From contig JADLAY010000017.1 of assembly GCA_020849765.1 (NCBI GenBank), forward strand, positions 44,906-108,905: DNA of 64,000 nt, written 5' to 3'. The notes under the pieces are model-generated. The model did no database searches, was not told the origin of the DNA, and was given only the letters and a program-made list of their open reading frames with translations. Made by a program: the position numbers and the translations under genes. This stretch comes from Anaerolineae bacterium. Lineage in GTDB: Bacteria; Chloroflexota; Anaerolineae; Aggregatilineales; Phototrophicaceae. Shown piece after piece: positions 9,649-39,313 of the stretch (within the stretch, counting starts at the first letter, position 1; every line of letters starts with the position of its first letter).

Positions 9649-11004
9649 TTATGGAAGCCCCAACCCTCCTGGCAATCCGCCGCCACCGCCGCCCGTCACA
9701 TTGTTGACCACGTCGTTGACGTTTTCGACCACCGGGTCGACGACGCCACCCGTATCGCCGCCGGTCGTCTCATTCACGGTTTCGACGACCGGATCCACTA
9801 CGCCGCTGGTGCCGCCGGTATCCGCGGAATTGAGCACGTCGTTGACCGTATCGACCACCGGGTCGACGACGCCGCCCGTATCGCCGCCGGTCGCGTCATT
9901 CACCGCGTTGACGACCGGATCAATCACGCCGCTGGTGCCACCGCCCGTGCCCGTGGAGTTGAGCACGTCGTTGACCGTATCGACCACCGGGTCGACGACG
10001 CCGGTCGTATCGCTGCCGGTCACGCCATTCACGGTGTCCTGAACGCCGTTGACGATCGGGTCGATGACATTGCCCGCGCTATCGACGACCGGGTAGACGA
10101 TGTTGCCTGCGCTATCCACAACCGGCTCGATGATGTTGCCCGCGCTGTCGACCACAGGCTCGATCAGGCCGATATCGACGATGCTCGGATCGATGGTCGA
10201 GACGACGCCGGTGATCAGGTCGATGAGCGAGTCGGTATCGCTGATAGTGTCGTCGACGATAGTCACGACCGGAACATCCGAGCAATCACCGCCGACGGTC
10301 ACGTCTGAGACGGAGATGAGGCCGGTCGTGCCGTTATCATTGATCAGCAGCAGATCGCCCGTATCGACGCTGCCGACGACGGCCACAGGCGCTTCCGTGC
10401 CGACGGCAATCGCCGAACCGCCGCCTGAACTCGTCTGGATCGAGACGCCCGTCCCACCATTAGAACCCGCCAGGCACGACGTACTGGTCAGGTCGATGCC
10501 ACCCTCGATCAGCAGCGAGCCGTCGGCGGTCGTCGCCATCGAGGCCAGCAGGTCGAAGTTCTCTTCTGAGCAGGCAATGTCATTCGGATCGCCGGTCATC
10601 AGCATGAGGCCGTACCACTGCGCCTGCTGCGGATTCTGCGCCACGACATTCAACACATAGTTGGCACTACCGGGCACGATGCGCAGGCACATACCGCTGA
10701 CGCCGAGCTTCGCCATCATGACGTTCTCCAGCGTCAACTGGTCTGAGATGATGACGTTGAGCGGGTCCTGGTAGTCCTGGCTGGCCGCCATCACGTAAAT
10801 CGTCTGATTATTGAGCGCAGAGAAACGATACTGGTTGGACATCTGCGCGCCATTTACGTATTCCTGAACAATCTGGCCAAAGGGCAATACTGTGGGTACA
10901 GTCTGCGCGCCAGCGGGCTGAGCCAACAGCAGACTTACGAGCGATAGCATAATGAGAGCGACGAGGTAAGGTTTTTGGAGCCGCATACTGTCACTATCCT
11001 TCAA
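9649..11004 (-). CDS. secreted repeat protein (signal peptide, C-terminal tandem VVDPVVDTVNDVLN-type repeats)
   Basis: Signal peptide MRLQKPYLVALIMLSLVSLLLAQPAGAQ. The C-terminal half is built from tandem ~40-aa repeats encoded by ~120-bp DNA repeats. GGAGGA-TTAA-TTG start at 11004 or AAGGA-ATG at 10986. AT-rich upstream region. Confidence 0.7.
   Translation of the reverse strand: MKDSDSMRLQKPYLVALIMLSLVSLLLAQPAGAQTVPTVLPFGQIVQEYVNGAQMSNQYRFSALNNQTIYVMAASQDYQDPLNVIISDQLTLENVMMAKLGVSGMCLRIVPGSANYVLNVVAQNPQQAQWYGLMLMTGDPNDIACSEENFDLLASMATTADGSLLIEGGIDLTSTSCLAGSNGGTGVSIQTSSGGGSAIAVGTEAPVAVVGSVDTGDLLLINDNGTTGLISVSDVTVGGDCSDVPVVTIVDDTISDTDSLIDLITGVVSTIDPSIVDIGLIEPVVDSAGNIIEPVVDSAGNIVYPVVDSAGNVIDPIVNGVQDTVNGVTGSDTTGVVDPVVDTVNDVLNSTGTGGGTSGVIDPVVNAVNDATGGDTGGVVDPVVDTVNDVLNSADTGGTSGVVDPVVETVNETTGGDTGGVVDPVVENVNDVVNNVTGGGGGGLPGGLGLP
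9690..10060 (-). repeat. tandem ~120-bp coding repeats within the secreted repeat-protein gene
   Basis: Units such as gtcgttgaccgtatcgaccaccgggtcgacgacgcc...ggagttgagcac repeat at least three times. Approximate bounds. Confidence 0.6.
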
Positions 11005-11326: not shown

Positions 11327-12199
11327 CTAACCCGATTCGTCGACGCCGTGGACGATGCCATCACGTTCGAACTCGATCCAGTAGTGATCGGCGAAGGCCG
11401 CCAGCGCGGGGATGCGCCCGATGCGATCGTCGAGCGCAGTGAGTACACGCAGCAACGGAGGGCGCCGCTCGATCACGCCATAGATGTCGCTCGGCGGCAG
11501 CCACAGGCCGAGCGGCTCGACGCGCGTCCGCCGGAACCACGGCGCGAAATCACGTGCCAACTTGCCGGGGGATGGGTAGAAGATGGCGGGGGCGGACAGG
11601 GCACGCCCTGTCCCTACAGGCAGGTCGTGATTTGTAGGGACGTCATGCTTGGCGTCCGCCGTCGTGCGCTTGCCTTCGAAGGTCGTCCCACCGCCCCAGC
11701 GCCGGAAAGCGACGTCGAATTCACCGTGCAGCGCATGCCAGCCGATCTCCCACAGGCACAGCGGCGGCATGACGCCGAAGGCCGCCCGCCCGCCCGGCGC
11801 CACGATCGTCGCCAGCCACGCCGCGAGAGGCTGCCAGCCGCTCAGGCAGTTGAGCACACCGAAGTTGGCGAAGACGAGATCGACCTTCTCCTCCGCCGGA
11901 TATGGATTCAAGTCGCTAAGGTCAAGATGTTCGACGCGCACGTTGGCATACCCGGCCAGCTTGGTGCGGGCGGCATCGAGCATCGCTTCGCTGGCGTCGG
12001 TCGCGATCACATGGACGCCGCGCCGGGCCAGATGCAGCGCATCCTCGCCCGTGCCGCAGCCGAGTTCGAGCGCCGTCTCGCCGGGCGCGATCAGCCGATC
12101 CAGCCGTGCGTGGACGCGTTCGCGCAGGTGACGCGCGATCGGCGAGTCCGTGAAGTCGGCGTCATAGGTCGGCGCGAGCGAGTCGAAAGCTGCAGGCAT
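11327..12199 (-). CDS. class I SAM-dependent methyltransferase
   Basis: SAM-binding motif ALELGCGTGEDA, DASEAML motif. Contains an in-frame copy of the 28-bp REP-like palindrome. Follows the radical SAM gene with a 6-bp gap. Confidence 0.85.
   Translation of the reverse strand: MPAAFDSLAPTYDADFTDSPIARHLRERVHARLDRLIAPGETALELGCGTGEDALHLARRGVHVIATDASEAMLDAARTKLAGYANVRVEHLDLSDLNPYPAEEKVDLVFANFGVLNCLSGWQPLAAWLATIVAPGGRAAFGVMPPLCLWEIGWHALHGEFDVAFRRWGGGTTFEGKRTTADAKHDVPTNHDLPVGTGRALSAPAIFYPSPGKLARDFAPWFRRTRVEPLGLWLPPSDIYGVIERRPPLLRVLTALDDRIGRIPALAAFADHYWIEFERDGIVHGVDESG
11591..11619. repeat. REP-like 28-bp palindrome (GCGGACAGGGCACGCCCTGTCCCTAC), copy in methyltransferase ORF
   Basis: Stem GGACAGGGC/GCCCTGTCC with ACG loop. 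28-bp identity with the 39079..39107 copy. Confidence 0.75.
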
Positions 12200-12205
12200 T
12201 GCGCC

Positions 12206-13702
12206 TCAGTCGACCAACCCGCCAACGATCACGGGCGGCGAGGCGGGCGGCAGCAGCGCCAGCCGGTCGAGTTCGGCGCGGGCGGCGGGCAGCGTCAGCG
12301 TGTGGTAGATCATGGCGGCGGTCTGGCGCAGCAGGCCGGGCGAAAGCTGGCGTGGATCGCGCAGCACGTCGCGCAGGGCGGCGCTCGTCTTGCGCGCGCG
12401 GTACTCCTTATGCACGACCGTGTGTAGTTGGCGGTAGAACTCGGTGCGATACGGCCCCTGGTAGAGCATGGCCAGGTCGGCGCTGTCGATCCAGTTGGCG
12501 CGCACGCCCAGCTCGTGCTTAACGTCCTCGTAGAACTTCGTCCCCGGCAGCGGATAGCTGACGCTGATGCCGATGTCGTCCGGCAGCAAGTCGCGCACCA
12601 TCTTGAGCGTCAGCTCGATGTCCTCGCGCGTCTCGCCGGGATAGCCGAACTGCAGGAAGAAGGCGACCTTGACGCCATGCGCGTGCAGTTGGCGCGTCGC
12701 CTCGTAGATCTGCTCGACGGTCGTGCCCTTGTCCATCGCGTCCAGGATCTTCTGCGAGCCGCTCTCGGCGCCGACCCAGACGATTTTCGCGCCCGCCCGC
12801 GCCAGCGCCGGGATGGTGCGCCCGCGCAGCAGCAGATCGACGCGATTGAGGCTCTTGAACGGGATGTGCACGTTTGCCGCGTCGAGTTGGTCGGCGAACT
12901 GCTCGATCCAGCGATCCTGAATGCCCATGATGTCGTCCATGAACCAGATGTGATCCGGCGCGAAGTTCTCCTGCAGCCAGCGCATTTCGGCGACGACGTT
13001 CTCCGGGCTGCGCACGTGATAGCGCTGGCCCCAGATCGGCTTGGCGCACCAGTTGCAGTGGAAGGGACAGCCGCGCGTCGTCACCAGGTTCATGCTGTAG
13101 TAGCCGTGGTGTTCGCGCCAGATGCGGGCGTACTTGTCGCGGTCGACCAGATCCCAGGCCGGGAACGGCAGCGAGTCGAGATCGGCGATCACGGGGCGCG
13201 GCAGCGTGCGCACGACCGTATCCGCACCGTCCAGGTAGGCGATGCCTGGCACGTCGGGCATTTCCGCACGGCCTAGCTGGTCGATCAGCTCCGGCAGCGT
13301 CGCGTCACCCTCACCGAGGATGACGGCATCCGCCCCAGCGTGCAGATAGGCGCCCGGATGATCGCTCGCATCCGATCCGCAAGCGATGACGACGCAGCCG
13401 CGCGCCTTGGCCATGCCGATCATTTCGAGCGCTGCCTCACGCATGCGCAGCAGGCTCATCTTGCTCAGGTAGTTGAAGTTGTCCTCGTAGATGACGGCGT
13501 AGCGCGGCTGATGCTGGGTCAGCGCGGCGTCCCATTCGCCCGTGCCCTCGCTGAGCATCGCGTCGAACAGCGCCACCTTGTAGCCGCGTTCACGCATGAC
13601 CGCCGCCGCGTAGAGCGTGCCGAGCGGCGGGTAGGGCTGCATCGCCTCGTAGAGCTTGGGGTCGAAGCGGAGGAAGTAGGATTGACCAAACAGGATGTCC
13701 AT
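12206..13702 (-). CDS. B12-binding domain-containing radical SAM protein (class B radical SAM)
   Basis: N-terminal cobalamin-binding-like domain, then CPFHCNWC (CxxxCxxC) radical SAM cluster motif. 498 aa. Confidence 0.9.
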   Translation of the reverse strand: MDILFGQSYFLRFDPKLYEAMQPYPPLGTLYAAAVMRERGYKVALFDAMLSEGTGEWDAALTQHQPRYAVIYEDNFNYLSKMSLLRMREAALEMIGMAKARGCVVIACGSDASDHPGAYLHAGADAVILGEGDATLPELIDQLGRAEMPDVPGIAYLDGADTVVRTLPRPVIADLDSLPFPAWDLVDRDKYARIWREHHGYYSMNLVTTRGCPFHCNWCAKPIWGQRYHVRSPENVVAEMRWLQENFAPDHIWFMDDIMGIQDRWIEQFADQLDAANVHIPFKSLNRVDLLLRGRTIPALARAGAKIVWVGAESGSQKILDAMDKGTTVEQIYEATRQLHAHGVKVAFFLQFGYPGETREDIELTLKMVRDLLPDDIGISVSYPLPGTKFYEDVKHELGVRANWIDSADLAMLYQGPYRTEFYRQLHTVVHKEYRARKTSAALRDVLRDPRQLSPGLLRQTAAMIYHTLTLPAARAELDRLALLPPASPPVIVGGLVD

Positions 13703-18329: not shown

Positions 18330-19367
18330 ATGGCATACGGCAATCGTATGAACTTCTACGGCCACACAAGCCTGATGGAAGGGTCGGTGAATATGAGTTT
18401 GGAGACATCTCACGTGCAGTTGGCGCAAGCGATGGCACATCTCGAAAAAGATGAAACAGCCGAAGCGTTGCGCTTGCTGAATGACCTGATTGAAAAGGTC
18501 GACCTCCTCGACGCGCATCGTTTGCGCTTCACCATCTTGATAAAACGAATCGACAATCCCCATGATCTACGCGCATCACTGGACGTGTTGCGAACGGAAG
18601 CCCCTGATATATACAGCGCCGGGTTGGTGGAACTCGAGACTCAAATTCACAATCGTTTGAGCGAATTGCAGGACGGGATTACCGAAGCCACGCAGCGTGC
18701 CGAGATGCAGTCGTACCTCGACGAATACGACGCACTTGTGGTGTTGAGCGACCTGTTCCCCGTCATTCAGGTTGCCCGTGGGCTGGGCTATATGGCCGCC
18801 GCTCGCATCAGGGACAAAAAGGGGCAACCGGGCACCGAATCCCCCTACGAACATCTGCGGAGATTGCTCGCTAAAGACATGGCGGTCCCTTTCATGCGCG
18901 AACGTAATGAAACGGACAGCGTCGACGATACACAGGCCGAAAGGTGGCGCATGACCGCAGAACAGGCACTGTCTGCGGCGCTGATTTCCTTAACGCCGAA
19001 TCATCCATCCGTTGTCGAGATCCATGAAGTCTTAGGGATGCTCTACGAGGGCATGCATGAATACAGCAAGGCACTGCGGTCCTTTCAGGCCGCAATAGAG
19101 CACGGCAGCAGCAACATGGAGGACAAGGTACACGAACTCACAACGAAGATCAAACAGGAAACAGAGCGTCTGGCACTGGAGCGAGTCGATTCACTCCTGG
19201 CGAACCAACACCTGGACGAAGCCGAAACCTGCCTGGCGGAGTATGCGCCAGATGCGTTGACCGATGCCTGGCACTTACGTTATGCGGAACTCGCATTGCT
19301 ACGTGGTGACCGCGAAACAGCAATGCATCACTACGCCCTCATCCTGCCCCTTGTCCACAACAAATGA
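18330..19367 (+). CDS. hypothetical alpha-helical protein (partner of the downstream P-loop ATPase)
   Basis: 345-aa ORF with no recognisable motif. 15-bp gap to the next gene. Region looks lower in GC than its flanks. True start may be an internal Met (e.g. MSLETSHV). Confidence 0.55.
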   Translation: MAYGNRMNFYGHTSLMEGSVNMSLETSHVQLAQAMAHLEKDETAEALRLLNDLIEKVDLLDAHRLRFTILIKRIDNPHDLRASLDVLRTEAPDIYSAGLVELETQIHNRLSELQDGITEATQRAEMQSYLDEYDALVVLSDLFPVIQVARGLGYMAAARIRDKKGQPGTESPYEHLRRLLAKDMAVPFMRERNETDSVDDTQAERWRMTAEQALSAALISLTPNHPSVVEIHEVLGMLYEGMHEYSKALRSFQAAIEHGSSNMEDKVHELTTKIKQETERLALERVDSLLANQHLDEAETCLAEYAPDALTDAWHLRYAELALLRGDRETAMHHYALILPLVHNK

Positions 19368-19382
19368 GCAAGGAGATACCTG

Positions 19383-22124
19383 ATGGACTGGAATGATCCT
19401 TTCGTTGTGAGTAAAGCCTACGCGAAACTCCGCTCCATCGATCCGCCTGTCAATGCCGGATCAGATGCGGCTGTCCTTCCTCACGTGGCATTCAACGTGC
19501 CCGCCGATGACGTCAGGCGCCGAGCGCTTGCGGGTGTGCTTCATCTTCATCGCCAGGGTCGCCAGCAGTTTGATTTTCTGCCGCACCTGGAGACAGCCCT
19601 CCTATATGGCGACTTCGATGAGGAGACCAAACGCACGCTGCGCGCTGAAATCCGGGCGATTGAACGCGAGCGCCAGCAAGCTGCTTTTGCGACGATTCGC
19701 AGACTCAAGCGGAAGAAACTGCATGTCCAACCGAAACGCCGTTCGACAACCCGCCAACCCGCATCGTTTGTGATGCAGGTGACCGACGATAGCTGCATCG
19801 TCCGCTTTGGCTACCGGCTCACTAACGTGCGCGCAGTGCGCTTTGACATGCCCGTCGAGGCGGAAGGCGCGGCGTTACTCAGAACGCTGACTCAGGCTGT
19901 TGAAATCTGGAAAGACCGCCTCAGCCTGGGCCTTGAAGCTGACTTTACCTGGCGCTATTCCAGCGAGGCTCACCGTGTGAATCTGGAGTTGCTGGTTGAG
20001 CTTCATTTGCCGGAACCTGAAATGGCGGAGGAAGTCGTTCGTGGCCTACAAACCATCATTGAAAACCAACAGCCATTTCCCGAAGTCTATCATTTTGCGC
20101 GAATCGTCGAAAGGAAGCATCTTAAGAATTTCTACGGCAGCACATCGTTTGCCAGCGTCGCGGAGATCGTGCGCCATGAAGGTGTGATGGAGTATGAAGG
20201 GAAGAACCTCTATGTGATCTTTCCGGTGAAGGTGGATAGCGACCGCTTACACGATCTCATGGTCTACCTGCGTAGCGCAACGGATGGCAACGTCATCGAC
20301 ATCAAGATACGCCCCTCTGCGGTGACGCGCTCAGAGATCGATGCCGCTCTCGAGGCTATCACCATTGGCGTGAGTTATTATGACGAGGACAGCGAAGAGA
20401 TTCGGCTGAAAATGTCGGAAGGCGCGATCTTTGACCATCAATGGCTGAAAGCGCTGGATGCTTACCGGATGATGCTTTCCCAGATCCACAGCCAGGCTTA
20501 CGAAGTGCGCCTGCGTGTTGCCAGCAAAACGGATATCGACATCTTGCCGCTCGCCACGTTGGCCGGGCGTTCGCTCCTTGGCCTGGGAGCCTTCGACGTG
20601 ATTCCGGCGGCCTATGGTGCTCGGTCAATCGCCCTTGACGATCTGTCACCTCGCACCCGCGCCCCGGCAGAACTATCTCGGTTGCGCCGCATGTGGTCGC
20701 TTGTCGAAACAGCTTTTGTCACCCGCCTGCCACGACCATCTGCGGCGGGCATACCGGGAATCCCAATGACCCAGGTTAAGCCCCACCGGATACCCTCCGG
20801 GCTGCCTGAAGAGGGCTGTGTACTTGGACAGGTCACATCACAGGGAGAAACCACACCCACCCTGGTAAAACTACCTTACGTCGACCGCACACGACATGTC
20901 TATGTCGTCGGCCGAACCGGCACCGGCAAAACGACCATGCTGCATAACATGGCGCTGCAAGACATCGAAAATGGGCATGGTGTTGGGGTGATCGACCCCC
21001 ATGGCGACTTGATCGATGCGTTGTTGGAGCGCATACCGCACCATAGAGCCGGGGATGTTGTCCTGTTTGACCCTGGGGATATCTCGCGCCCGGTGGGTTT
21101 GAATTTGCTCGACGTGGAGGGCCCCATTGCGCAGAATTTGGCTGTCGCCGATTTTATTGGCTTGATGTACAGCATGTACGATCCGGGCCACACCGGGATC
21201 GTCGGCCCTCGATTCGAGCAAAGCGTGCGCAACAGCATGTACACCGCGATGGCAATACCCGGTGCGACCATCATCGACGTGCTGCGCATTATTAGCGATA
21301 ACCGGTACAGTCACGACGTCCAGAAGTATCTCACCGATCCGATTGTCAAAGACTATTGGGAGAAGATATACGACAGCCAGAGTGACTTTCATCGCAGCGA
21401 AGTCAAAGACTACATCACCAGCAAGTTCAGCCGCTTCACATCCGATCGTATGGTGCGGCAGATTATCGGCCAATCCAAGACCAGTCTCAATTTCGCCGAC
21501 ATTTTCAACAACAAGAAGATTCTGCTCGTCAATCTGGCGAAAGGGCGTATCGGCGAGTTCAACAGCCAGTTCCTGGGCTTCATTCTCGTATCGCAATTGT
21601 TGATTGCCGCATTCCAACGTGTGAACCAGGCTGTTGATCTGCGTATCCCATACTATCTGTACATTGATGAGTTTCAGAACTTCGCCACACCCGGCCTGGG
21701 GGCCATGCTTTCGGAGGGGCGAAAATATGGACTGGCGCTCACGCTGGCGCATCAATTCATCCATCAGCTGGATGTCAAAATCCGTGAAGCGGTTTTCGGT
21801 AACGTAGGCACTATCTGCGCTTTCCAGGTTGGGTTGCAGGATGCAGAGTATCTGGCTCGCGAGATGTACCCCGTCTTTGGCACTGACGATCTGGTCAATT
21901 TGCCAGCATATCATGCCGCGTCCAAGATTTTGGCGCACAAACAGACCCTGATGCCGTTTGTGATGCAGACGCTGCCCGAACAGAATCAGCCGCGAAAGGA
22001 AGTTGCTGACGCCATCCGGACTTTCAGTGGCCTGACATATGGGAGTAACGCGGCTGTCGTCGAAGACAACATTCGCGCTCAATTCGCGCTGCCCCTACAG
22101 AAACGTATGGAGCTGCTGACCTGA
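19383..22124 (+). CDS. FtsK/HerA/TraG-superfamily P-loop NTPase with large N-terminal domain of unknown function
   Basis: Walker A VVGRTGTGKT at about aa 505, IDPHGDL, Walker B YLYIDEFQNF, then EGRKYGLALTLAHQ (arginine-finger/Q motif typical of the HerA/FtsK/VirD4 clade). No TM segment. First ~470 aa uncharacterised. Confidence 0.75.
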   Translation: MDWNDPFVVSKAYAKLRSIDPPVNAGSDAAVLPHVAFNVPADDVRRRALAGVLHLHRQGRQQFDFLPHLETALLYGDFDEETKRTLRAEIRAIERERQQAAFATIRRLKRKKLHVQPKRRSTTRQPASFVMQVTDDSCIVRFGYRLTNVRAVRFDMPVEAEGAALLRTLTQAVEIWKDRLSLGLEADFTWRYSSEAHRVNLELLVELHLPEPEMAEEVVRGLQTIIENQQPFPEVYHFARIVERKHLKNFYGSTSFASVAEIVRHEGVMEYEGKNLYVIFPVKVDSDRLHDLMVYLRSATDGNVIDIKIRPSAVTRSEIDAALEAITIGVSYYDEDSEEIRLKMSEGAIFDHQWLKALDAYRMMLSQIHSQAYEVRLRVASKTDIDILPLATLAGRSLLGLGAFDVIPAAYGARSIALDDLSPRTRAPAELSRLRRMWSLVETAFVTRLPRPSAAGIPGIPMTQVKPHRIPSGLPEEGCVLGQVTSQGETTPTLVKLPYVDRTRHVYVVGRTGTGKTTMLHNMALQDIENGHGVGVIDPHGDLIDALLERIPHHRAGDVVLFDPGDISRPVGLNLLDVEGPIAQNLAVADFIGLMYSMYDPGHTGIVGPRFEQSVRNSMYTAMAIPGATIIDVLRIISDNRYSHDVQKYLTDPIVKDYWEKIYDSQSDFHRSEVKDYITSKFSRFTSDRMVRQIIGQSKTSLNFADIFNNKKILLVNLAKGRIGEFNSQFLGFILVSQLLIAAFQRVNQAVDLRIPYYLYIDEFQNFATPGLGAMLSEGRKYGLALTLAHQFIHQLDVKIREAVFGNVGTICAFQVGLQDAEYLAREMYPVFGTDDLVNLPAYHAASKILAHKQTLMPFVMQTLPEQNQPRKEVADAIRTFSGLTYGSNAAVVEDNIRAQFALPLQKRMELLT

Positions 22125-22566
22125 CAACCCGTAATGCAAAGGCAAGAATGCCACAGAGCATAAGGCGAAGACTGGCTTCAGGTGAGCAAGTACCAACGGC
22201 CAATGAGGCGAGAACTGCCGTCAGGGGTCGTCGGCAGTCACCTGTGGCAATACCCAGGACGTTCAACCAGCGGCGAAGATCGGCTTGAGGACGAGCGCGC
22301 CGCCGAGGCAGACGAAGATGTAGACGAGATTGACGACCGCGCGGGTCGCCCAGGGATGGTGCGAGAAATCGAGCCCGACCGCGCGCCCAACGATCACAAC
22401 GACGGTCGCCAGGTCGTGCAGGCCCGCCCGAAATGACGAACGTCATCAGCAGCGCGATCACACAGCGTGGGATTCGGCCTCTCACACGGAAGGCTCATGC
22501 AACCGATGCTAACGCGGCGGCGTATACGGGGTTACGACTCGTGAACACAAATGCAGGGCATTGATC

Positions 22567-23271
22567 ATGGCGAAGGCACAACCGCAGACGTCCAGGCGAC
22601 ATTCGTGGATCGGCCCGATCCTTGCCGCGGTGATGTTCATCGCCGTCACCGGCGGGCTGATCTACGCCATGAATACGCTCGGCACGGAGCGCTTGCAGCA
22701 GATCGTGCGCGACGCCGGGCCGCTCGCCCCGCTGATCTACATCCTGCTGCGCGCGGCGACCTACGTTTTCGCCCCGCTAACGACCGGCCCGATCCAGATC
22801 GCGAGCGGCGCATTGTTCGGCGTCTGGGGCGGCATTATCCTGTCGGTCATCGGCGAGACGCTCGGCGGCAGCATCAACTTCTTCATCGGGCGGCGCTTTG
22901 GGCGCCCGGTCGCGCTGCGGCTGGCCGGTGAGGAAGGGCTGAAGAAAGCTGAGGAGTACTACCAGCTCGTCGGCGATTGGCGCGGGCTGGTCGTCGCGCG
23001 GTTGGTGCTGTTCGCCATCTGGGACTTCCTCAGCTACGTGATCGGCTTCACGCCCGCGAAGTTCATCCATTACCTGCTCGTGTCGCTGTTCGTCGGCGCC
23101 ATCCCGACGGCAGCGGCCGTCTTCCTCGGCTCACAGTTAGGCGGCGACAATCAAACACTGCTGATCGTCGGCCTGATCGTCCTCTGCGTCGTCTTGCTGC
23201 TGCCGGTGCTGTTCAGCAAGCGCATCCGCCATTGGATGAGCACGCGCGGTTCCGCCAAACCCGGGTTGTAA
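22567..23271 (+). CDS. TVP38/TMEM64 (DedA-like, SNARE-associated) family membrane protein
   Basis: Polytopic membrane protein with family-typical G-rich motifs (FGVWGG, GETLGGSINFFIGRRFGR). ATG at 22567, with a TTG three codons upstream. Confidence 0.8.
   Translation: MAKAQPQTSRRHSWIGPILAAVMFIAVTGGLIYAMNTLGTERLQQIVRDAGPLAPLIYILLRAATYVFAPLTTGPIQIASGALFGVWGGIILSVIGETLGGSINFFIGRRFGRPVALRLAGEEGLKKAEEYYQLVGDWRGLVVARLVLFAIWDFLSYVIGFTPAKFIHYLLVSLFVGAIPTAAAVFLGSQLGGDNQTLLIVGLIVLCVVLLLPVLFSKRIRHWMSTRGSAKPGL
23158..23249 (+). repeat. direct repeat copy 1 (3' end of DedA-family gene)
   Basis: 92 bp, identical at about 89/92 positions to 24104..24195. Flanks the merB-like gene. Confidence 0.85.
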
Positions 23272-23359
23272 GCAGGTGATGGGTTTGCTGCAGCAGGGAT
23301 TAGCCGACTATACTGACACAAAGACTGAGTAGGCTATCAGAAGACAAACGGAGGCACGG

Positions 23360-24061
23360 ATGATGGATGCCAGTTTGATTCAACAAGCATATACCAGCAT
23401 TCAGCAGCACTTTGTCGAAACGGGACGCGCTCCACATTACACCGAATTAGCCTCGCTCCTGAGGATTACGCCCGACGAGGCACGCGCAGTCCAAAGCGCC
23501 GCAGCCAAAGCCGGTGTCGGGTGCTGGATTAGCGCAGACACCGATTACATCGCCTCATGGGCACCCTTCTCAAACATCCCCACCCAGTATCTCGTCACGG
23601 TAGACGGCCAACAAAAATGGTATGCGCAGTGAGGCCTGGAATCGCTGGCCGTGGGCTGGCTCTTTCCGGGCAAGGAAGTGCGCATAGAAGCGCGCTGTCT
23701 TGATTGCGGCGAGTCTATCCTCGTGCGCACAAAGGATGGCGAACTTCTGGACGCAAATCCGGACACCATTATCGGGCACATCAGCCTTCCCATCCGCCAA
23801 TGGGGAGCCGTCGCCAACGCCTTCCTCTGAAGTCACATCAATCTCTTCCGGTCGGAAGAACATGCGAAAAACTGGTTGCTCTATGATCCGTTGTCCGAGG
23901 AGTCGATCATGTCGCTGGCGGAGTGGATGCGGCTTGTCCGTGTCGGCTTGTGGCGCAACCGACTGCAGCCGGATTATCTCGCGCGGGTAGGCGAGTATCG
24001 CGCTGAGTTCCTGGCTACGGTGCATGAGATGGGCAAGACAGGCCCCTTCTGGCAGGTTTGA
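23360..24061 (+). CDS. organomercurial lyase MerB-family protein with two in-frame TGA codons (candidate selenoprotein, alternatively a pseudogene)
   Basis: The three same-frame ORF pieces (23360-23632, 23633-23830, 23876-24061) align end-to-end with MerB. This includes the N-terminal HTH-like region, and YAQ-TGA-GLE opposite YAW-C96-ALD99 and AFL-TGA-SHINLF opposite SFC-C159/160-HVHFF. GGAGG RBS before the ATG at 23360. Confidence 0.5.
23645..23659 (+). other. hairpin 12 nt downstream of first in-frame TGA (candidate bacterial SECIS-like element)
   Basis: CUGGCC-GUG-GGCUGG: 6-bp stem with two G-U pairs, loop GUG. Hand-folded only. Confidence 0.25.
23844..23859 (+). other. hairpin 13 nt downstream of second in-frame TGA (candidate bacterial SECIS-like element)
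   Basis: UCUUCC-GGUC-GGAAGA: perfect 6-bp stem with a GGUC loop, reminiscent of the G/U-containing apical loop of the E. coli fdhF SECIS. Confidence 0.35.
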
Positions 24062-24082
24062 TAGACCAGGAAACAACTTTAG

Positions 24083-24098
24083 AGAGCTGATGCTCTCC
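24083..24098 (+). terminator. small hairpin after merB-like gene
   Basis: GAGAGC-TGAT-GCTCTC. Confidence 0.3.
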
Positions 24099-24103
24099 AA
24101 ATG

Positions 24104-24195
24104 CTGCTGATCGTCGGCCTGATCGTCCTCTACGTCGTCTTGCTGCTGCCGGTGCTGCTCAGCAAGCGCATCCGCCACTGGATGAGCACGCGCGG
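24104..24195 (+). repeat. direct repeat copy 2 (duplicated 3' fragment of DedA-family gene, downstream of merB-like gene)
   Basis: Encodes a remnant MLLIVGLIVLYVVLLLPVLLSKRIRHWMSTRG, matching the C-terminus of the 22567..23271 product. Confidence 0.85.
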
Positions 24196-24321
24196 CACCT
24201 CCAAAGGCGACTGCTGAGCCGTAAATTCACACGAAACCCGCGAAACGTAGGTCACGAGTCGGGTAGCGCGGCGCATTCTGTGGCAGGATCGGGCCGTCGC
24301 TCAGCGAATGGAGTACTGCCC

Positions 24322-24717
24322 ATGACACATACTCAGACTCAGTCATCCATCACGCCGTTCATGCTCGTGATCGGCATCGCCGTCGCGCTCTTCCTCGTGA
24401 GCATCGTCGCGCCGTTTTACGCCCTGGGGCTGCATCTCGAACCGGCCAATCTGGTCGCGGGCGGCAGCTTCGATCCGAAAGGCTTCGAACTGACCGGTGG
24501 CTGGCTGCGCATGGTCGGCTTCCTCACGCTCACGCTCGGCCCGCTGGCCGTGGCCGTCTGCGGCGGCCTGATCGCCTTCCGCCTGCTGCGACGCGGGGAT
24601 CAGCTTCCCAGCCGTCTGCGCCTCTACGGGGTGATCAGCTGCGCGGCAGCCATCGGCCTGTGGCTGTTCATCTTCTCGCCGCTGGGCCGCTTGATCCTGG
24701 CCTGGTTTCTCGACTAG
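24322..24717 (+). CDS. hypothetical membrane protein
   Basis: Start MTHTQTQSS with GGAG 9 nt upstream. Four hydrophobic helices, no known motif. Confidence 0.5.
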   Translation: MTHTQTQSSITPFMLVIGIAVALFLVSIVAPFYALGLHLEPANLVAGGSFDPKGFELTGGWLRMVGFLTLTLGPLAVAVCGGLIAFRLLRRGDQLPSRLRLYGVISCAAAIGLWLFIFSPLGRLILAWFLD

Positions 24718-25862
24718 CCAGCAGGGCGAATACTCGAGGCAGCTTCGATATGAGCGGAGGCTGCCTCTGTCCATGCATCCGCATGGCCGATCGCCCCCTC
24801 CAGCACATCCTCTCGCAAGATCTGCCTCATCTTCTCCGGTTGTTCGTGGAACGGACTGTGAGCGGACTGCTCGAAGGTGTAGAAGCCCTTCAGAGGTGCT
24901 TTGATCTGCTCGAAGTATGCCCTGGCTTCCGGATAGGATGTCGTGTAATCGTGGCTGCCATGCACGAAATAGACGGGCAGCTTCAGTTCCGTCACCACTT
25001 GCGTCAGATCGGTGGCGAGGAGCTGCTCCCACAAGACGGCCCTGGAGAAGAACTTGCCGCGCCACAGGCTGATCTTTTCGCTGACCGTGTATTCCGGGCT
25101 CAGCCAAGATCGCAGGAAGATGCCCGTGATGACCGACCTCATGTCGCGCGTCGTGCCGATGCCAAGGCTGTGCATGGCGTCGTCGCGCAGTGCGTTGTAC
25201 GCCGCGGGCAGCCCATCCGTCATCGTGACGGGCGCTTGCTCTAGCTTGCGCGCCATCCTCCGGTTGCCGTTGGCCTTGAACTGCTGAAGCATGTAGTCGT
25301 AGGCCCACTTTTCGGACTTCAGCTGGTACGTCACCTGGCTGATGCCGATGTAGGCGTGATAGATTTCCGGTGTCCGTGCCGCGACTTGCAGACCGAGAAA
25401 GCTGCCCCAGGAATGCCCCATCAGGTAGATCTTGTCTTGACCAAAGCGCTGGCGCAGATAATTCGTGACTTCGAGCGTATCCGCGATCAGTTGCTCCACG
25501 GTGAGGGTCGCCGCGGACATCCCGGCATGGTAGGAGAGACCTGCGCCGCGCTGTTCCCACCAGCAGACGGTGAAGTCGTTCTCCAGATCCGCCGGATAAC
25601 GCCGGTTGAGGAAGTATGTCGGCATTCCAGGGCCGCCGTGAAGGAAGAGCAGCACCGGCTTCGATAGATCCTTGCTCCTGATGAACATGCCCTGGGCCAG
25701 GCCGTTGATGTTGACATGGATCTTTTCGGACAGGCTGCCCGTCAGTGGGTTGCCATCTTCATCGAGGAGCGGCGCCGGTCTTCCGTGACTCCAGAGCAGC
25801 AGCGCGCCGACCGGCATGAGAAGGCAAATCAACAGGATCGTGATTGCAGGCAACATAGGCAT
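24714..25862 (-). CDS. alpha/beta hydrolase (proline iminopeptidase / S33-like)
   Basis: HGGPG oxyanion motif, GHSWG nucleophile elbow, N-terminal signal/anchor. Confidence 0.85.
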   Translation of the reverse strand: MPMLPAITILLICLLMPVGALLLWSHGRPAPLLDEDGNPLTGSLSEKIHVNINGLAQGMFIRSKDLSKPVLLFLHGGPGMPTYFLNRRYPADLENDFTVCWWEQRGAGLSYHAGMSAATLTVEQLIADTLEVTNYLRQRFGQDKIYLMGHSWGSFLGLQVAARTPEIYHAYIGISQVTYQLKSEKWAYDYMLQQFKANGNRRMARKLEQAPVTMTDGLPAAYNALRDDAMHSLGIGTTRDMRSVITGIFLRSWLSPEYTVSEKISLWRGKFFSRAVLWEQLLATDLTQVVTELKLPVYFVHGSHDYTTSYPEARAYFEQIKAPLKGFYTFEQSAHSPFHEQPEKMRQILREDVLEGAIGHADAWTEAASAHIEAASSIRPAG

Positions 25863-37119: not shown

Positions 37120-38775
37120 ATGCCTAGTGCATTCATCTCTTATCGCCGCGTCGAAAGCGCTGCCCTTGCCACGCTGATCGCCGTCACCTTGCAAGACAAG
37201 CATGGCATTGAAGTTTTCGTCGATACCCGCAGTACCGACGGTGGTGGCCTGTTTCCTGACCGCTTGCGCCGCGCCATTGAACATTGCGACGTATTCGTTT
37301 GCCTGCTTGGCGCGACGACGCTGGAATCCGCCTGGGTGATGGAAGAGATCGAACATGCGCATAACTTGCGCAAGACGATGATCCCGGTCTTCCAGGAACG
37401 TTACGTTCCGCCCAACCCAATTCCCAGCGTACACGTCGAAGCACTGCTGCAATCGGATGGATTGCAGGTTCTTGATGTGCGCAACGTGTACGTCGATCAA
37501 GCTATCTCCGACTTGGCGTCAATGATCAGAAGATCCGTCGGTGCTCCAATGCCGCCGCCCAGGCGAGGCATCGGGTTACCTCTGATTGCCGCAGTCTTGG
37601 TGTTGCTCGCGTTAGTCGCCCTTGGCATCTTCCTGGTGTCTCGCGCCATGGAATCCCCCACTTCAACAGCCAGTCCGACACAGATCGCGGGTGGTGTGAC
37701 CGCCAGCACCACCATCGAGCAACCCACCGCTGCACCGACAGAAGATGCGGCTGGCACACGGGTCGCCCAATTGCAGGCCAGCCTGACCGCCTTGGCGCAA
37801 CTTCAAATCGTAGGGGAAGAAACCGCGACGGCGGACGCCGCAACGCGTGGTGCTGCTGCACAAATCGATGCGACTTTGCGGGCAGCCGCGGACACCGCGA
37901 CCGCGGCTGCCCTCGCTATCACGCAATCCGTATTGGGTGAAACGGCGACTCAGCAAGCCATTGACGCGACCGCGATAGCTAGTGTATCGACAGATACTCC
38001 CACCCCATCCGCGACACCTACGCCTATCACACTGGAATATGCTTACGCCCAGGCAGTAAATTATGATGATGGTCAGGGAAATACGGCATGGACGCCTATT
38101 GCATATACGTTTGGGGATGGCGTGACGATGGTTCTAGTACCGACGGGCTGCTTTTTGATGGGTAGCAGCGAAGGTAATATTAACGAACAGCCCATCAATG
38201 AGCAGTGCTTTGTCGTGCCATTCTGGATCGACCAGACTGAAGTGACACAGGCCGATTTTGTACGTCTGAGTGGACAAAAGGCGGCCCCGAATGAATTTCC
38301 TGCTGACCAACACCCCGTTGAGAATATCACTTGGTTCGAAGCACGTAATTTCTGCGTGTTGCGGGGTGCGCGCTTGCCAACAGAGCGCGAATGGGAATAT
38401 GCAGCCCGCGGCCCTGAAGGATGGATCTACCCATGGGGAAACATGTGGGACACGAGCTATGCTGCATGGAACCGGAGTAGATCGCAAAGAACCGCCATCG
38501 TGGGAACAGCATCAAATGGGGTTTCCTGGGTCGGTGCACAGGATATGAGCGGCAACGTCTGGGAGTGGGCGAGCTCCCTTTACCAGCCGTACCCCTATGC
38601 GGCAGACGATGGACGAGAGGGGGATATGAGAGACCTTGCGGATGCTCAACGTGTGTTGAGAGGCGGTTCTTGGTACTACGTCAGTACTATTGGCCTACGC
38701 GCGCCTACGCGCAGCGGACTCGACCCAATAGCCAAAGACAATCTATTAGGTTTCCGTTGCGCCCGCGATGTCTGA
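37120..38775 (+). CDS. TIR domain - TM helix - Thr/Ala-rich linker - FGE-sulfatase (SUMF1-like) domain fusion protein
   Basis: N-terminus SAFISYRRVES and SAWVMEEIEHA (TIR alphaC SxW..E motif with the conserved Glu). One TM (LPLIAAVLVLLALVALGIFLV). C-terminal FGE-sulfatase signatures GNVWEWASS, RGGSWYY, GFRCARD. AT-rich promoter region 37010-37120. Confidence 0.8.
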   Translation: MPSAFISYRRVESAALATLIAVTLQDKHGIEVFVDTRSTDGGGLFPDRLRRAIEHCDVFVCLLGATTLESAWVMEEIEHAHNLRKTMIPVFQERYVPPNPIPSVHVEALLQSDGLQVLDVRNVYVDQAISDLASMIRRSVGAPMPPPRRGIGLPLIAAVLVLLALVALGIFLVSRAMESPTSTASPTQIAGGVTASTTIEQPTAAPTEDAAGTRVAQLQASLTALAQLQIVGEETATADAATRGAAAQIDATLRAAADTATAAALAITQSVLGETATQQAIDATAIASVSTDTPTPSATPTPITLEYAYAQAVNYDDGQGNTAWTPIAYTFGDGVTMVLVPTGCFLMGSSEGNINEQPINEQCFVVPFWIDQTEVTQADFVRLSGQKAAPNEFPADQHPVENITWFEARNFCVLRGARLPTEREWEYAARGPEGWIYPWGNMWDTSYAAWNRSRSQRTAIVGTASNGVSWVGAQDMSGNVWEWASSLYQPYPYAADDGREGDMRDLADAQRVLRGGSWYYVSTIGLRAPTRSGLDPIAKDNLLGFRCARDV

Positions 38776-39313
38776 TTGCGACCACACTTACCCCCAGCGC
38801 AAATCGCCTCGTCTCCGCGACTATGATTACGCACAATCCGGTGCATATTTCGTCACCATCTGTACCTATCGACGTGAGCATCTCTTTGGCGAGGTCGTCG
38901 ATCAACAGATGCATCTGTCGCGGATGGGATCGATTGCTCATGACCTGTGGTACACCATCCCCGATCATCATTCGCAGGTCGAACTCGATGCGTTCGTCGT
39001 CATGCCCAACCATGTCCACGGCATCATCGTTGTAGGGACGCCGCGTGCGGCGTCCGGCGGCGAGAATGATGGGCGATCGGCGGACAGGGCACGCCCTGTC
39101 CCTACGGAATCGCTCGGAGCGATCATCGGTGCGTACAAGTCCGCCGTGACACGCACCGTCAATCAGGCGATGAGGTTGGTCGCGCCGACGGTCTGGCAGA
39201 CGCGCTATGACCATCACATCATTCGCAGCGAGCACGATCTAGACCGCATCCGCGCCTACGTCGCCGACAACTCCGCGCGATGGCTGGATGACACGCTGTT
39301 CACAAAAGGATAG
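38768..39313 (+). mobile_element. REP-associated tyrosine transposase (RAYT, IS200/IS605-like Y1 HUH transposase)
   Basis: HUH motif NHVHGIIVV and catalytic Tyr context RYDHHIIRS. Start ATG overlaps the TIR-FGE stop (ATGTCTGA). Contains an in-frame copy of the 28-bp REP-like palindrome. Confidence 0.8.
39079..39107. repeat. REP-like 28-bp palindrome, copy inside the RAYT ORF
   Basis: Identical core to 11591..11619. Encodes SADRARPVPT in-frame. Confidence 0.75.

Follow-up and report, generated by a model that had tools for sequence, protein, structure and literature searches.

Introduction

The organomercurial lyase MerB (EC 4.99.1.2) coordinates R-Hg+ through Cys96 and Cys159 while a proton from Asp99 cleaves the Hg-C bond; Hg(II) is held by the two thiolates until it is handed on, and the replacement D99S alters the metal specificity (PMC10114901). 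Within the family, the acid position of this triad also varies in nature: in the Bacillus megaterium enzyme MerB2 (PDB 5C17), Ser stands in place of Asp99, and the activity is much reduced (PMC10114901). A selenocysteine (Sec)-containing relative has been described as SaoL, the MerB-like "selenocysteine-assisted organometallic lyase" (bioRxiv 10.1101/2022.07.06.499078; PMC9312934; PMC13188914), whose Sec was aligned with MerB Cys159 (Haft & Gwadz, bioRxiv 10.1101/2022.07.06.499078). The single Sec of SaoL belongs to a Cys-Sec (CU) dipeptide some 50 residues from the C-terminus, and the two remaining triad positions retain Cys and Asp; the protein marks a nine-gene SAO locus (saoTECXLBPAD) in strict anaerobes. 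Here we analyse a stretch of 64,000 nucleotides from contig JADLAY010000017.1 of an Anaerolineae bacterium (hereafter, the window), in which positions 23360–24061 very probably constitute a bona fide gene for a MerB-like selenoprotein with two Sec residues, predicted at the positions of both catalytic cysteines.

Other selenoproteins offer a partial parallel. The formate dehydrogenase FdhF, [NiFeSe] hydrogenase and HgcA (the latter with a CU motif) share with the window protein the UGA codon followed at once by a selenocysteine insertion sequence (SECIS) in the coding region, and the use of Sec as a soft- or redox-metal ligand; their folds are unrelated and they have a single Sec ligand, whereas two converging Sec residues are predicted for the window protein. 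The consensus of the bacterial element (bSECIS) comprises a loop of 3–9 nt with a G among its two leading bases, an upper stem of 4–16 bp, a distance of 16–37 nt from the UGA to the loop and a minimum free energy (MFE) of -7.5 kcal/mol or lower (PMC13188914).

Results

Reading frame and active-site mapping

The gene lies on the plus strand and comprises 233 codons plus a TGA terminator (24059–24061), its sole internal stops being the TGAs at codons 91 and 157, both predicted to encode Sec. A Shine-Dalgarno-like GGAGG, read from the sequence, is found at 23350–23354, 5 nt before the ATG; a scan for promoters and terminators around the gene gave nothing informative. An ordinary listing of open reading frames (ORFs) cuts the frame into three pieces, which an earlier note on this DNA had taken for parts of a single MerB homologue. 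This is borne out by the continuous 233-codon frame and by the profile search, for which Cys was written at both in-frame stops: the match to PF03243 (MerB) scores 80.1 bits (E=1.7e-22; gathering cut-off 27) and extends over residues 70–193, thus crossing both TGAs.

HMMER alignment to the MerB chains 1s6l, 3f2g and 5c17 puts codon 91 (UGA-1, 23630–23632) on Cys96 (YAW-C-ALD versus YAQ-*-GLE), Glu94 (GAA, 23639–23641; an invariant column of the family) on the proton donor Asp99, and codon 157 (UGA-2, 23828–23830) on Cys159 (SF-C-CHVHFF versus FL-*-SHINLF). The match to PF03243, which the earlier note had suggested as a check, runs across both TGAs; the note's placement of the first TGA at Cys96, with Glu replacing Asp99, and of the second at the Cys159 position agrees with the solved MerB structures. 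With MerB (plasmid R831b/Tn21 type; PDB 3F0O, 3F0P, 1S6L) the window protein shares the fold, the register of the triad and an equivalent of the structural Cys117, namely Cys113, and the alignment, which starts in the N-terminal helical region, stays collinear as far as the C-terminus, at about 13–18% identity. On the other hand, MerB has Cys/Asp/Cys where the window protein would have Sec/Glu/Sec without Cys160, and the window protein, unlike MerB, has an extra CxxC motif (Cys113-Leu-Asp-Cys116, 23696–23707), a C-terminal extension and no merA, merR, merT or merP nearby. The Cys96/Asp99/Cys159 triad is thus represented by its positions, which are in register, and not by its residues; the predicted replacements are chemically conservative, and a MerB-like mechanism is possible with them.

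MerB2 gives the best match among solved structures (5C17, E=1.4e-7, residues 31–188). In MerB2 the two cysteines are retained and the acid is replaced by Ser, whereas the window protein keeps the acid as Glu and would have both thiols replaced by selenols. The fold assignment is also supported by an AlphaFold model (predicted local distance difference test score 91.3) of the Cys/Cys homologue P0006, which shares 53% identity with the window protein and whose significant PDB matches are MerB and MerB2 alone (E=3e-10 to 7e-7, template modelling score 0.55–0.67). Within the family, the invariant or near-invariant residues include Sec/Cys91, Glu94 (Glu in 85/85), Sec157, Cys113 and the motif FRSEE(H), with Cys116 present in at least 90%; the conservation of FRSEE(H) is partly imposed by the second hairpin described below.

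None of the NCBIfam models claims this two-Sec MerB-like family. The window protein misses the MerB models NF033555 (35.9 versus 200 bits) and PRK13239 (39 versus 193 bits), and it reaches 43.2 bits against a cut-off of 140 bits with the SaoL model NF040728, over residues 59–137 only. SaoL and the window protein both belong to the PF03243 superfamily and have Sec, in our case predicted, at the Cys159 position; database calls typically end at that UGA in both families, and neither is linked to the classical mer operon. However, in place of the CU dipeptide the window protein would read Leu-Sec-Ser, 76 residues before the C-terminus, with a second Sec for Cys96 and Glu for Asp99; in the family, the site-2 Sec is preceded by A, N, L, T, S, G, R or K, and never by C. 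The window family, unlike SaoL, is also longer by about 25 residues at its C-terminus, includes some fusions to cyclase or AAA+ domains and is without a conserved neighbourhood. We therefore reject membership in SaoL, on account of the NF040728 score and the lack of a CU motif and of an SAO locus, and likewise assignment to the classical mer-operon MerB, given the scores below the NCBIfam cut-offs and the absence of mer genes nearby.

The earlier note was aware of no described Sec-containing MerB. SaoL had, however, already been published, though without a two-Sec site. Reviews of prokaryotic selenoproteomes from 2022 and 2026 contain the CU/one-Sec MerB-like family only (PMC9312934, PMC13188914), and we found no description of a two-selenolate MerB site in the open-access literature that was searched. 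The predicted two-Sec proteins thus apparently form a second, undescribed clade of MerB-like selenoproteins, distinct from both MerB and SaoL; this putative family is large, taxonomically wide and made up mainly of environmental sequences.

Conservation of the two TGA columns

A search of 5.8 billion protein sequences yielded 161 homologues, the best 120 of which were examined for the residues at the two sites. The corresponding DNA was retrieved for 9 genome loci and 80 metagenome loci, with several further look-ups. In the 94 related loci compared, which represent several phyla, TGA stands at site 2 in 94/94, while site 1 is TGA in 77 and TGC or TGT in 17; neither TAA nor TAG occurs at either column in these 94 loci. 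Taking the two sites together, 90 loci divide into 75 with TGA/TGA and 15 with TGY/TGA, and four further loci show the same pattern. Site 2 would accordingly be Sec in all members examined by DNA, and site 1 would toggle between Cys and Sec over evolution. The true terminators of 85 family genes are TAG in 45, TGA in 22 and TAA in 18. The named hosts, which are metagenome-assembled genomes (MAGs), include Gammaproteobacteria, Thermoflexaceae, Anaerolineae, Thermodesulfobacteriota, Geobacter and Nitrospinaceae, and in all of them the frame runs on to the conserved C-terminus MNLFRSEEHAKNW...GKTGPFW.

Selection acts on the segments beyond each TGA. When the window gene was compared with six relatives, the ratio of nonsynonymous to synonymous substitution rates (dN/dS) was 0.09–0.30 for codons 92–156 and 0.17–0.38 for codons 158–233, the proportion of nonsynonymous differences being far below that of synonymous ones. 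Such low values after each TGA indicate that the downstream sequence is translated.

The protein databases hold this family in a distorted form. Among the best 120 of the 161 homologues, 87 carry Cys at site 1 and break off precisely at site 2, after about 155 residues, while 2 break off precisely at site 1; another 24 run to full length with Trp at both sites, and two (P0006 and P0077) do so with Cys at both. One of the Trp/Trp entries, P0033, was checked in DNA and has TGA at both sites, so that the Trp calls are consistent with translation under genetic code 4. P0006 is a true Cys/Cys homologue, with TGT and TGC in the DNA of its locus (L099). The public name of family members is "hypothetical protein", given to shortened products (e.g., UCC53724.1, MBI3635283.1). 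The annotation as fragments that the earlier note expected of such a gene is seen in the three-piece ORF calls here and in database homologues that mostly end at site 2; homologues with Cys or in-frame TGA at these sites, of the kind that the note proposed to look for, are represented by the alternation of TGA and TGY at site 1 and by the Cys/Cys homologue.

Two other homologues depart from these classes: P0003 has Ser/Cys and P0012 Ser/Trp at sites 1 and 2, the Trp of P0012 being probably TGA, and both may be variants without the first ligand. In the relative from Anaerolineae bacterium BC1.4 (L008, 71% identical), the frame shifts about 25 codons before the expected C-terminus, at about 10608–10650, which is either an assembly error or the onset of decay.

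Hairpins downstream of the UGA codons

SECIS-1 extends from 23634 to 23671 on the plus strand and consists of the hairpin GCUGGCC-GUG-GGCUGGC (23644–23660) on an 8-bp lower stem, in which 23634–23641 pairs with 23664–23671 in the MFE structure. Its upper stem has 7 bp and its GUG loop lies 18 nt from the UGA (-23.8 kcal/mol, z=-2.65). SECIS-2 (23844–23859, plus strand) is the hairpin UCUUCC-GGUC-GGAAGA, formed by codons 162–167 (Leu-Phe-Arg-Ser-Glu-Glu), with a 6-bp stem and the GGUC loop 19 nt from the UGA (-8.0 kcal/mol, z=-0.89). This loop, at nucleotides 23–26 from the UGA, presumably resembles the loop of the E. coli fdhF SECIS. Both hairpins are MFE structures and satisfy the bSECIS rule. 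The earlier note had seen small hairpins 12–13 nt after each TGA and had regarded them as compatible with bacterial SECIS elements; on folding, the spacings prove right, all bSECIS constraints are satisfied, and the hairpins are conserved in relatives.

RNAalifold recovers the site-1 hairpin from 70 distinct sequences with Sec at site 1 (0/420 pair cells broken) and the site-2 hairpin from 76 distinct sequences (1/456 broken). The changes seen in the site-1 stem are seven from G·U to A-U and a single compensatory one, from G-C to C-G. Since the stems are nearly invariant, the synonymous sites provide a stronger argument than covariation. In 85 sequences the codons that form SECIS-2 are frozen: Leu162 is CTC in 84/84, Phe163 TTC in 85/85, Arg164 CGG in 84/85, Ser165 TCG in 85/85 and Glu166 GAA in 79/85. 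The codon entropy at the SECIS-2 codons is 0–0.37 bits, whereas these amino acids show 0.87–2.36 bits in the remainder of the gene. Synonymous freezing is also found, less completely, at codons 95–99 after site 1.

The Cys-containing homologues serve as natural controls. All of the site-1 Sec forms (73/73) keep the 6/6 stem pairs and GU at loop positions 2–3, whereas 3 of the 12 Cys forms keep the stem and the loop GU and 9 lose the stem and/or the GU (Fisher p=5e-10). The SECIS of site 1 would therefore be retained only with the UGA codon. As for site 2, the Cys/Cys locus L099 spells the MNIFRSED segment ATA TTT CGT TCT GAA GAC, so that the peptide is kept while the site-2 hairpin is impossible. 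Altogether, the reading of the earlier note, Sec and not a pair of nonsense mutations, is upheld by the conservation of the TGA columns across phyla, the purifying selection, the frozen hairpins and the loss of the hairpin in Cys forms.

Genomic context and insertion

The window carries gyrA, secA, gltX and other chromosomal genes. On either side of the MerB-like gene stands a copy of a 108-nt direct repeat, found by a repeat search, which duplicates the 3′ end of a TVP38/VTT-domain gene (22561–23271); the left copy lies at 23152–23259 and the right copy, 93% identical to it, at 24098–24205, both on the plus strand. Two contigs of related Aggregatilineales MAGs (L094 and L095), at about 82% nucleotide identity, show synteny to the left and to the right of the gene, and in them the VTT gene is followed directly by the gene for a 145-residue protein. 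The site being empty in these relatives, the selenoprotein gene is an insertion in the present lineage; the inserted segment measures about 840 bp and its G+C content at third codon positions (GC3) is 0.67, versus about 0.8–0.9 in the neighbouring genes. The right repeat copy ends in ...SKGDC*, which is nearer to the ...TKDGS* of the relatives (L094 3358–4757) than is the ...AKPGL* of the copy that the VTT gene now uses. A 10-bp inverted repeat, TTTAGAGAGC-TGAT-GCTCTCCAAA, at 24078–24101, between the selenoprotein stop and the right repeat copy, could be a terminator or the remnant of a recombination site.

The neighbouring genes encode the TVP38/VTT-domain membrane protein, the 145-residue protein, an alpha/beta hydrolase and GreA, with a TPR protein and a TraD/VirD4-like ATPase further upstream. 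Searches with NCBIfam and Pfam detected neither a mer operon (merR, merA, merT/merP) nor Sao families among the neighbours in the window, and no mer-type family is among the 25 most frequent Pfam families of 125 neighbours of related loci. All-against-all BLAST of 1310 flanking ORFs, together with the Pfam assignment of those 125 neighbours, revealed no conserved neighbourhood, no family exceeding 3 occurrences; nor is there flanking synteny with the closest homologues, L001 and L008. The predicted two-Sec MerB-like gene behaves like a unit that is mobile and complete in itself. The closest two-Sec relative of the window gene, L097, has as its upstream neighbour (519–1283) an ArsR-type helix-turn-helix fused to a low-molecular-weight phosphatase/ArsC-like domain, which hints at a putative metalloid context, at this one locus only.

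Other parts of the window are also lineage-specific. Segment 18167–22494 is not found in L094 or L095, where a small cupin gene stands; it contains the TPR protein (18330–19367) and the ATPase, a 913-residue TraD/VirD4/HerA-like protein (19383–22124), at a GC3 of about 0.65 versus 0.8–0.9 nearby, and may be the remnant of a mobile element. Segment 24719–25960, with the alpha/beta-hydrolase gene (24714–25862, minus strand), is missing from the syntenic region of L094. Together with the MerB-like gene, these segments amount to three lineage-specific insertions between 18 and 26 kb. Elsewhere, a partial match to an IS200-like Y1 transposase (PF01797, E=4e-7) at 38768–39313 adjoins a serine dehydratase gene. 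On the minus strand, a B12-binding radical S-adenosylmethionine (SAM) gene (12206–13702) stands directly upstream of, and in frame with, a SAM methyltransferase gene (11327–12199); the pair is split by a single TGA and was treated as two ordinary adjacent genes. A second selenoprotein gene was not found in the window, where TGA-split pairs of coding-like ORFs correspond to gene junctions and antisense artefacts only.

Discussion

The recoding that we propose follows established bacterial Sec decoding. Each UGA would be recoded separately by a hairpin that starts 11–13 nt downstream; the apical loop with its G(G/U), 18–19 nt after the UGA, would be the binding site for the SelB·GTP·Sec-tRNA(Sec) complex, which would deliver Sec while the UGA is in the A site. 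In the folded protein, by homology to MerB, Sec91 and Sec157 would converge on one site with Glu94 alongside, and two selenolates with a carboxylate would make this site very avid for soft metals. What the site does is a matter on which we are more cautious: that it cleaves a soft organometal(loid) by protonolysis in the manner of MerB, or binds one tightly, is the most economical mechanism, yet a tentative reading to which we give a little less than an even chance. In model chemistry, selones that mimic organomercurial lyase are reported to cleave Hg-C bonds faster than thiones (cited in PMC11639659). The affinity of Se for Hg should hinder the release of the product; therefore, the targets may be other organometal(loid)s, or the protein may act as a single-turnover trap or as a sensor.

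The same recoding could indeed serve another job, that of a selenium-based soft-metal sensor or chaperone, or of a redox switch (a diselenide, or a selenenylsulfide with the nearby CxxC), controlling an output domain or a partner. This is on balance unlikely, though it is the main functional rival. It draws on the fusions present in the family: 18 of the 87 loci have a tail with a class III adenylate/guanylate cyclase domain (PF00211) and 4 of the 87 an AAA+ tail (PF00004), together about a quarter of the sampled loci and in both cases C-terminal to the two-Sec MerB-like domain, which in those lineages is probably an input or sensor module. Cyclase-type tails were noted in L041, L044, L046, L047, L058, L059, L062, L065, L066, L068, L071–L073, L075, L076 and L081, and AAA+ tails in L040, L043, L045 and L049, while L037 and L061 look like frameshifted cyclase fusions. 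Separate genes for cyclase, PAS, GAF, HD and histidine-kinase proteins also recur among the otherwise unconserved neighbours, a CxxC is conserved between the Sec residues, and the N-terminal 65 residues have a weak likeness to winged helices (matches to LexA, DtxR and MarR, E=0.05–1). Moreover, chemistry suggests that the release of Hg(II) bound by two selenolates would be difficult. However, 60 of the 87 members, the window gene included, stand alone, and the family keeps all the MerB triad positions with conservative replacements and an invariant acid, as catalysis needs. Sec is normally recruited for catalysis, which also counts against a sensor or switch.

A very unlikely alternative accepts the selenoprotein family as real and takes this copy for silent cargo, acquired horizontally by a host unable to decode Sec, with translation stopping at codon 91. 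It would account for the empty syntenic site in the related Aggregatilineales MAGs, for the 108-nt duplication around the gene and for the fact that the Sec machinery was not found within the 64-kb window. Yet the two copies of the repeat differ by 7%, as befits an insertion that is no longer fresh, and even so the frame of 702 nt is unbroken, with its two TGAs and its two hairpins preserved. In addition, UGA-2 with its SECIS is carried by L001, L008 and L097, Anaerolineae-type sequences with 71–83% identity, as well as by an uncultured Anaerolineaceae MAG (L007, 52%); these relatives suggest that the Anaerolineae-type lineage decodes Sec, and Sec decoding in the present host is our assumption.

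That the gene is a decaying pseudogene, a former Cys/Cys MerB homologue hit by two chance nonsense mutations in its catalytic codons, has a negligible probability. The split into three ORFs by gene callers and the lower GC3 of the inserted segment are what such a relic might show, but identical TGA columns, never TAA or TAG, in dozens of divergent loci from several phyla are not, and the spread of one recently dead element is countered by the 43–80% protein identity of the relatives. The frame, furthermore, has no frameshifts or extra stops, dN/dS is low (0.09–0.38) after each TGA, and the hairpins are conserved with their synonymous sites frozen; we reject the pseudogene on these three lines of evidence, TGA conservation, dN/dS and SECIS. 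Lastly, a reassignment of UGA to Trp or Gly (codes 4 or 25) in these organisms, which many JGI gene calls imply through their Trp at both sites and for which the 24 Trp/Trp entries among the best 120 homologues would speak, has virtually no chance and is rejected, since TGA is the most frequent genuine terminator of the window's genes (21 of the 43 predicted, this one included) and a real stop in the family (22/85), in-frame UGA is confined to the two columns that hold Cys in homologues, and the Trp/Trp call that was checked is TGA, in keeping with an artefact of gene calling under code 4 on short contigs. The high-GC Chloroflexota, Proteobacteria and other hosts concerned are not known for a reassigned code.

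Several observations weigh against a functional two-Sec gene in this host or against the function suggested for it. Neither selA, selB and selD nor tRNA-Sec was detected within the window by ARAGORN, Rfam and Pfam, the Rfam search over the window returning tRNA-Gln only, and no tRNA-Sec was present in 60 related loci. The gene being a lineage-specific insertion, part of the purifying-selection signal may stem from the donor lineage. The site-2 hairpin is weak by itself, its z-score not being significant, and is strongly supported by the comparison with other loci; its seventh pair, common in relatives, is lost in the window because codon 167 is GAA and not GAG. Covariation is sparse, so that the RNA argument is that of synonymous freezing and of the Cys-form controls. 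As for function, a bis-selenolate site might be too tight for Hg(II) to allow turnover, and no mer, SAO or other conserved neighbourhood points to a role. 

For the two-Sec selenoprotein, the comparative data suggest one obligatory and one facultative Sec site, the SECIS of the latter decaying upon reversion to Cys; the facultative site would thus be a clean natural system in which to study Cys/Sec exchange. Hundreds of environmental homologues are now stored as stumps of 155 or 90 residues or as Trp mistranslations, which a two-Sec family model would mend, and with it the counts of selenoproteins and of "merB" in mercury-cycling surveys would improve. The cyclase and AAA+ fusions suggest a selenium-dependent signal input. 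In its widest form, the proposition is that a widespread and as yet unannotated class of bis-selenolate proteins with the MerB fold performs or senses carbon-metal(loid) chemistry independently of mer, with coupling to cyclic AMP in some lineages; we regard it as rather improbable in this full extent. If it were true, these proteins could, for example, demethylate methylmercury or other organometallic compounds in sediments, soils and groundwater, they would provide the first selenocysteine-based sensory input domain, and metagenomic "merB" surveys would be miscounting and mistranslating a distinct enzyme class.

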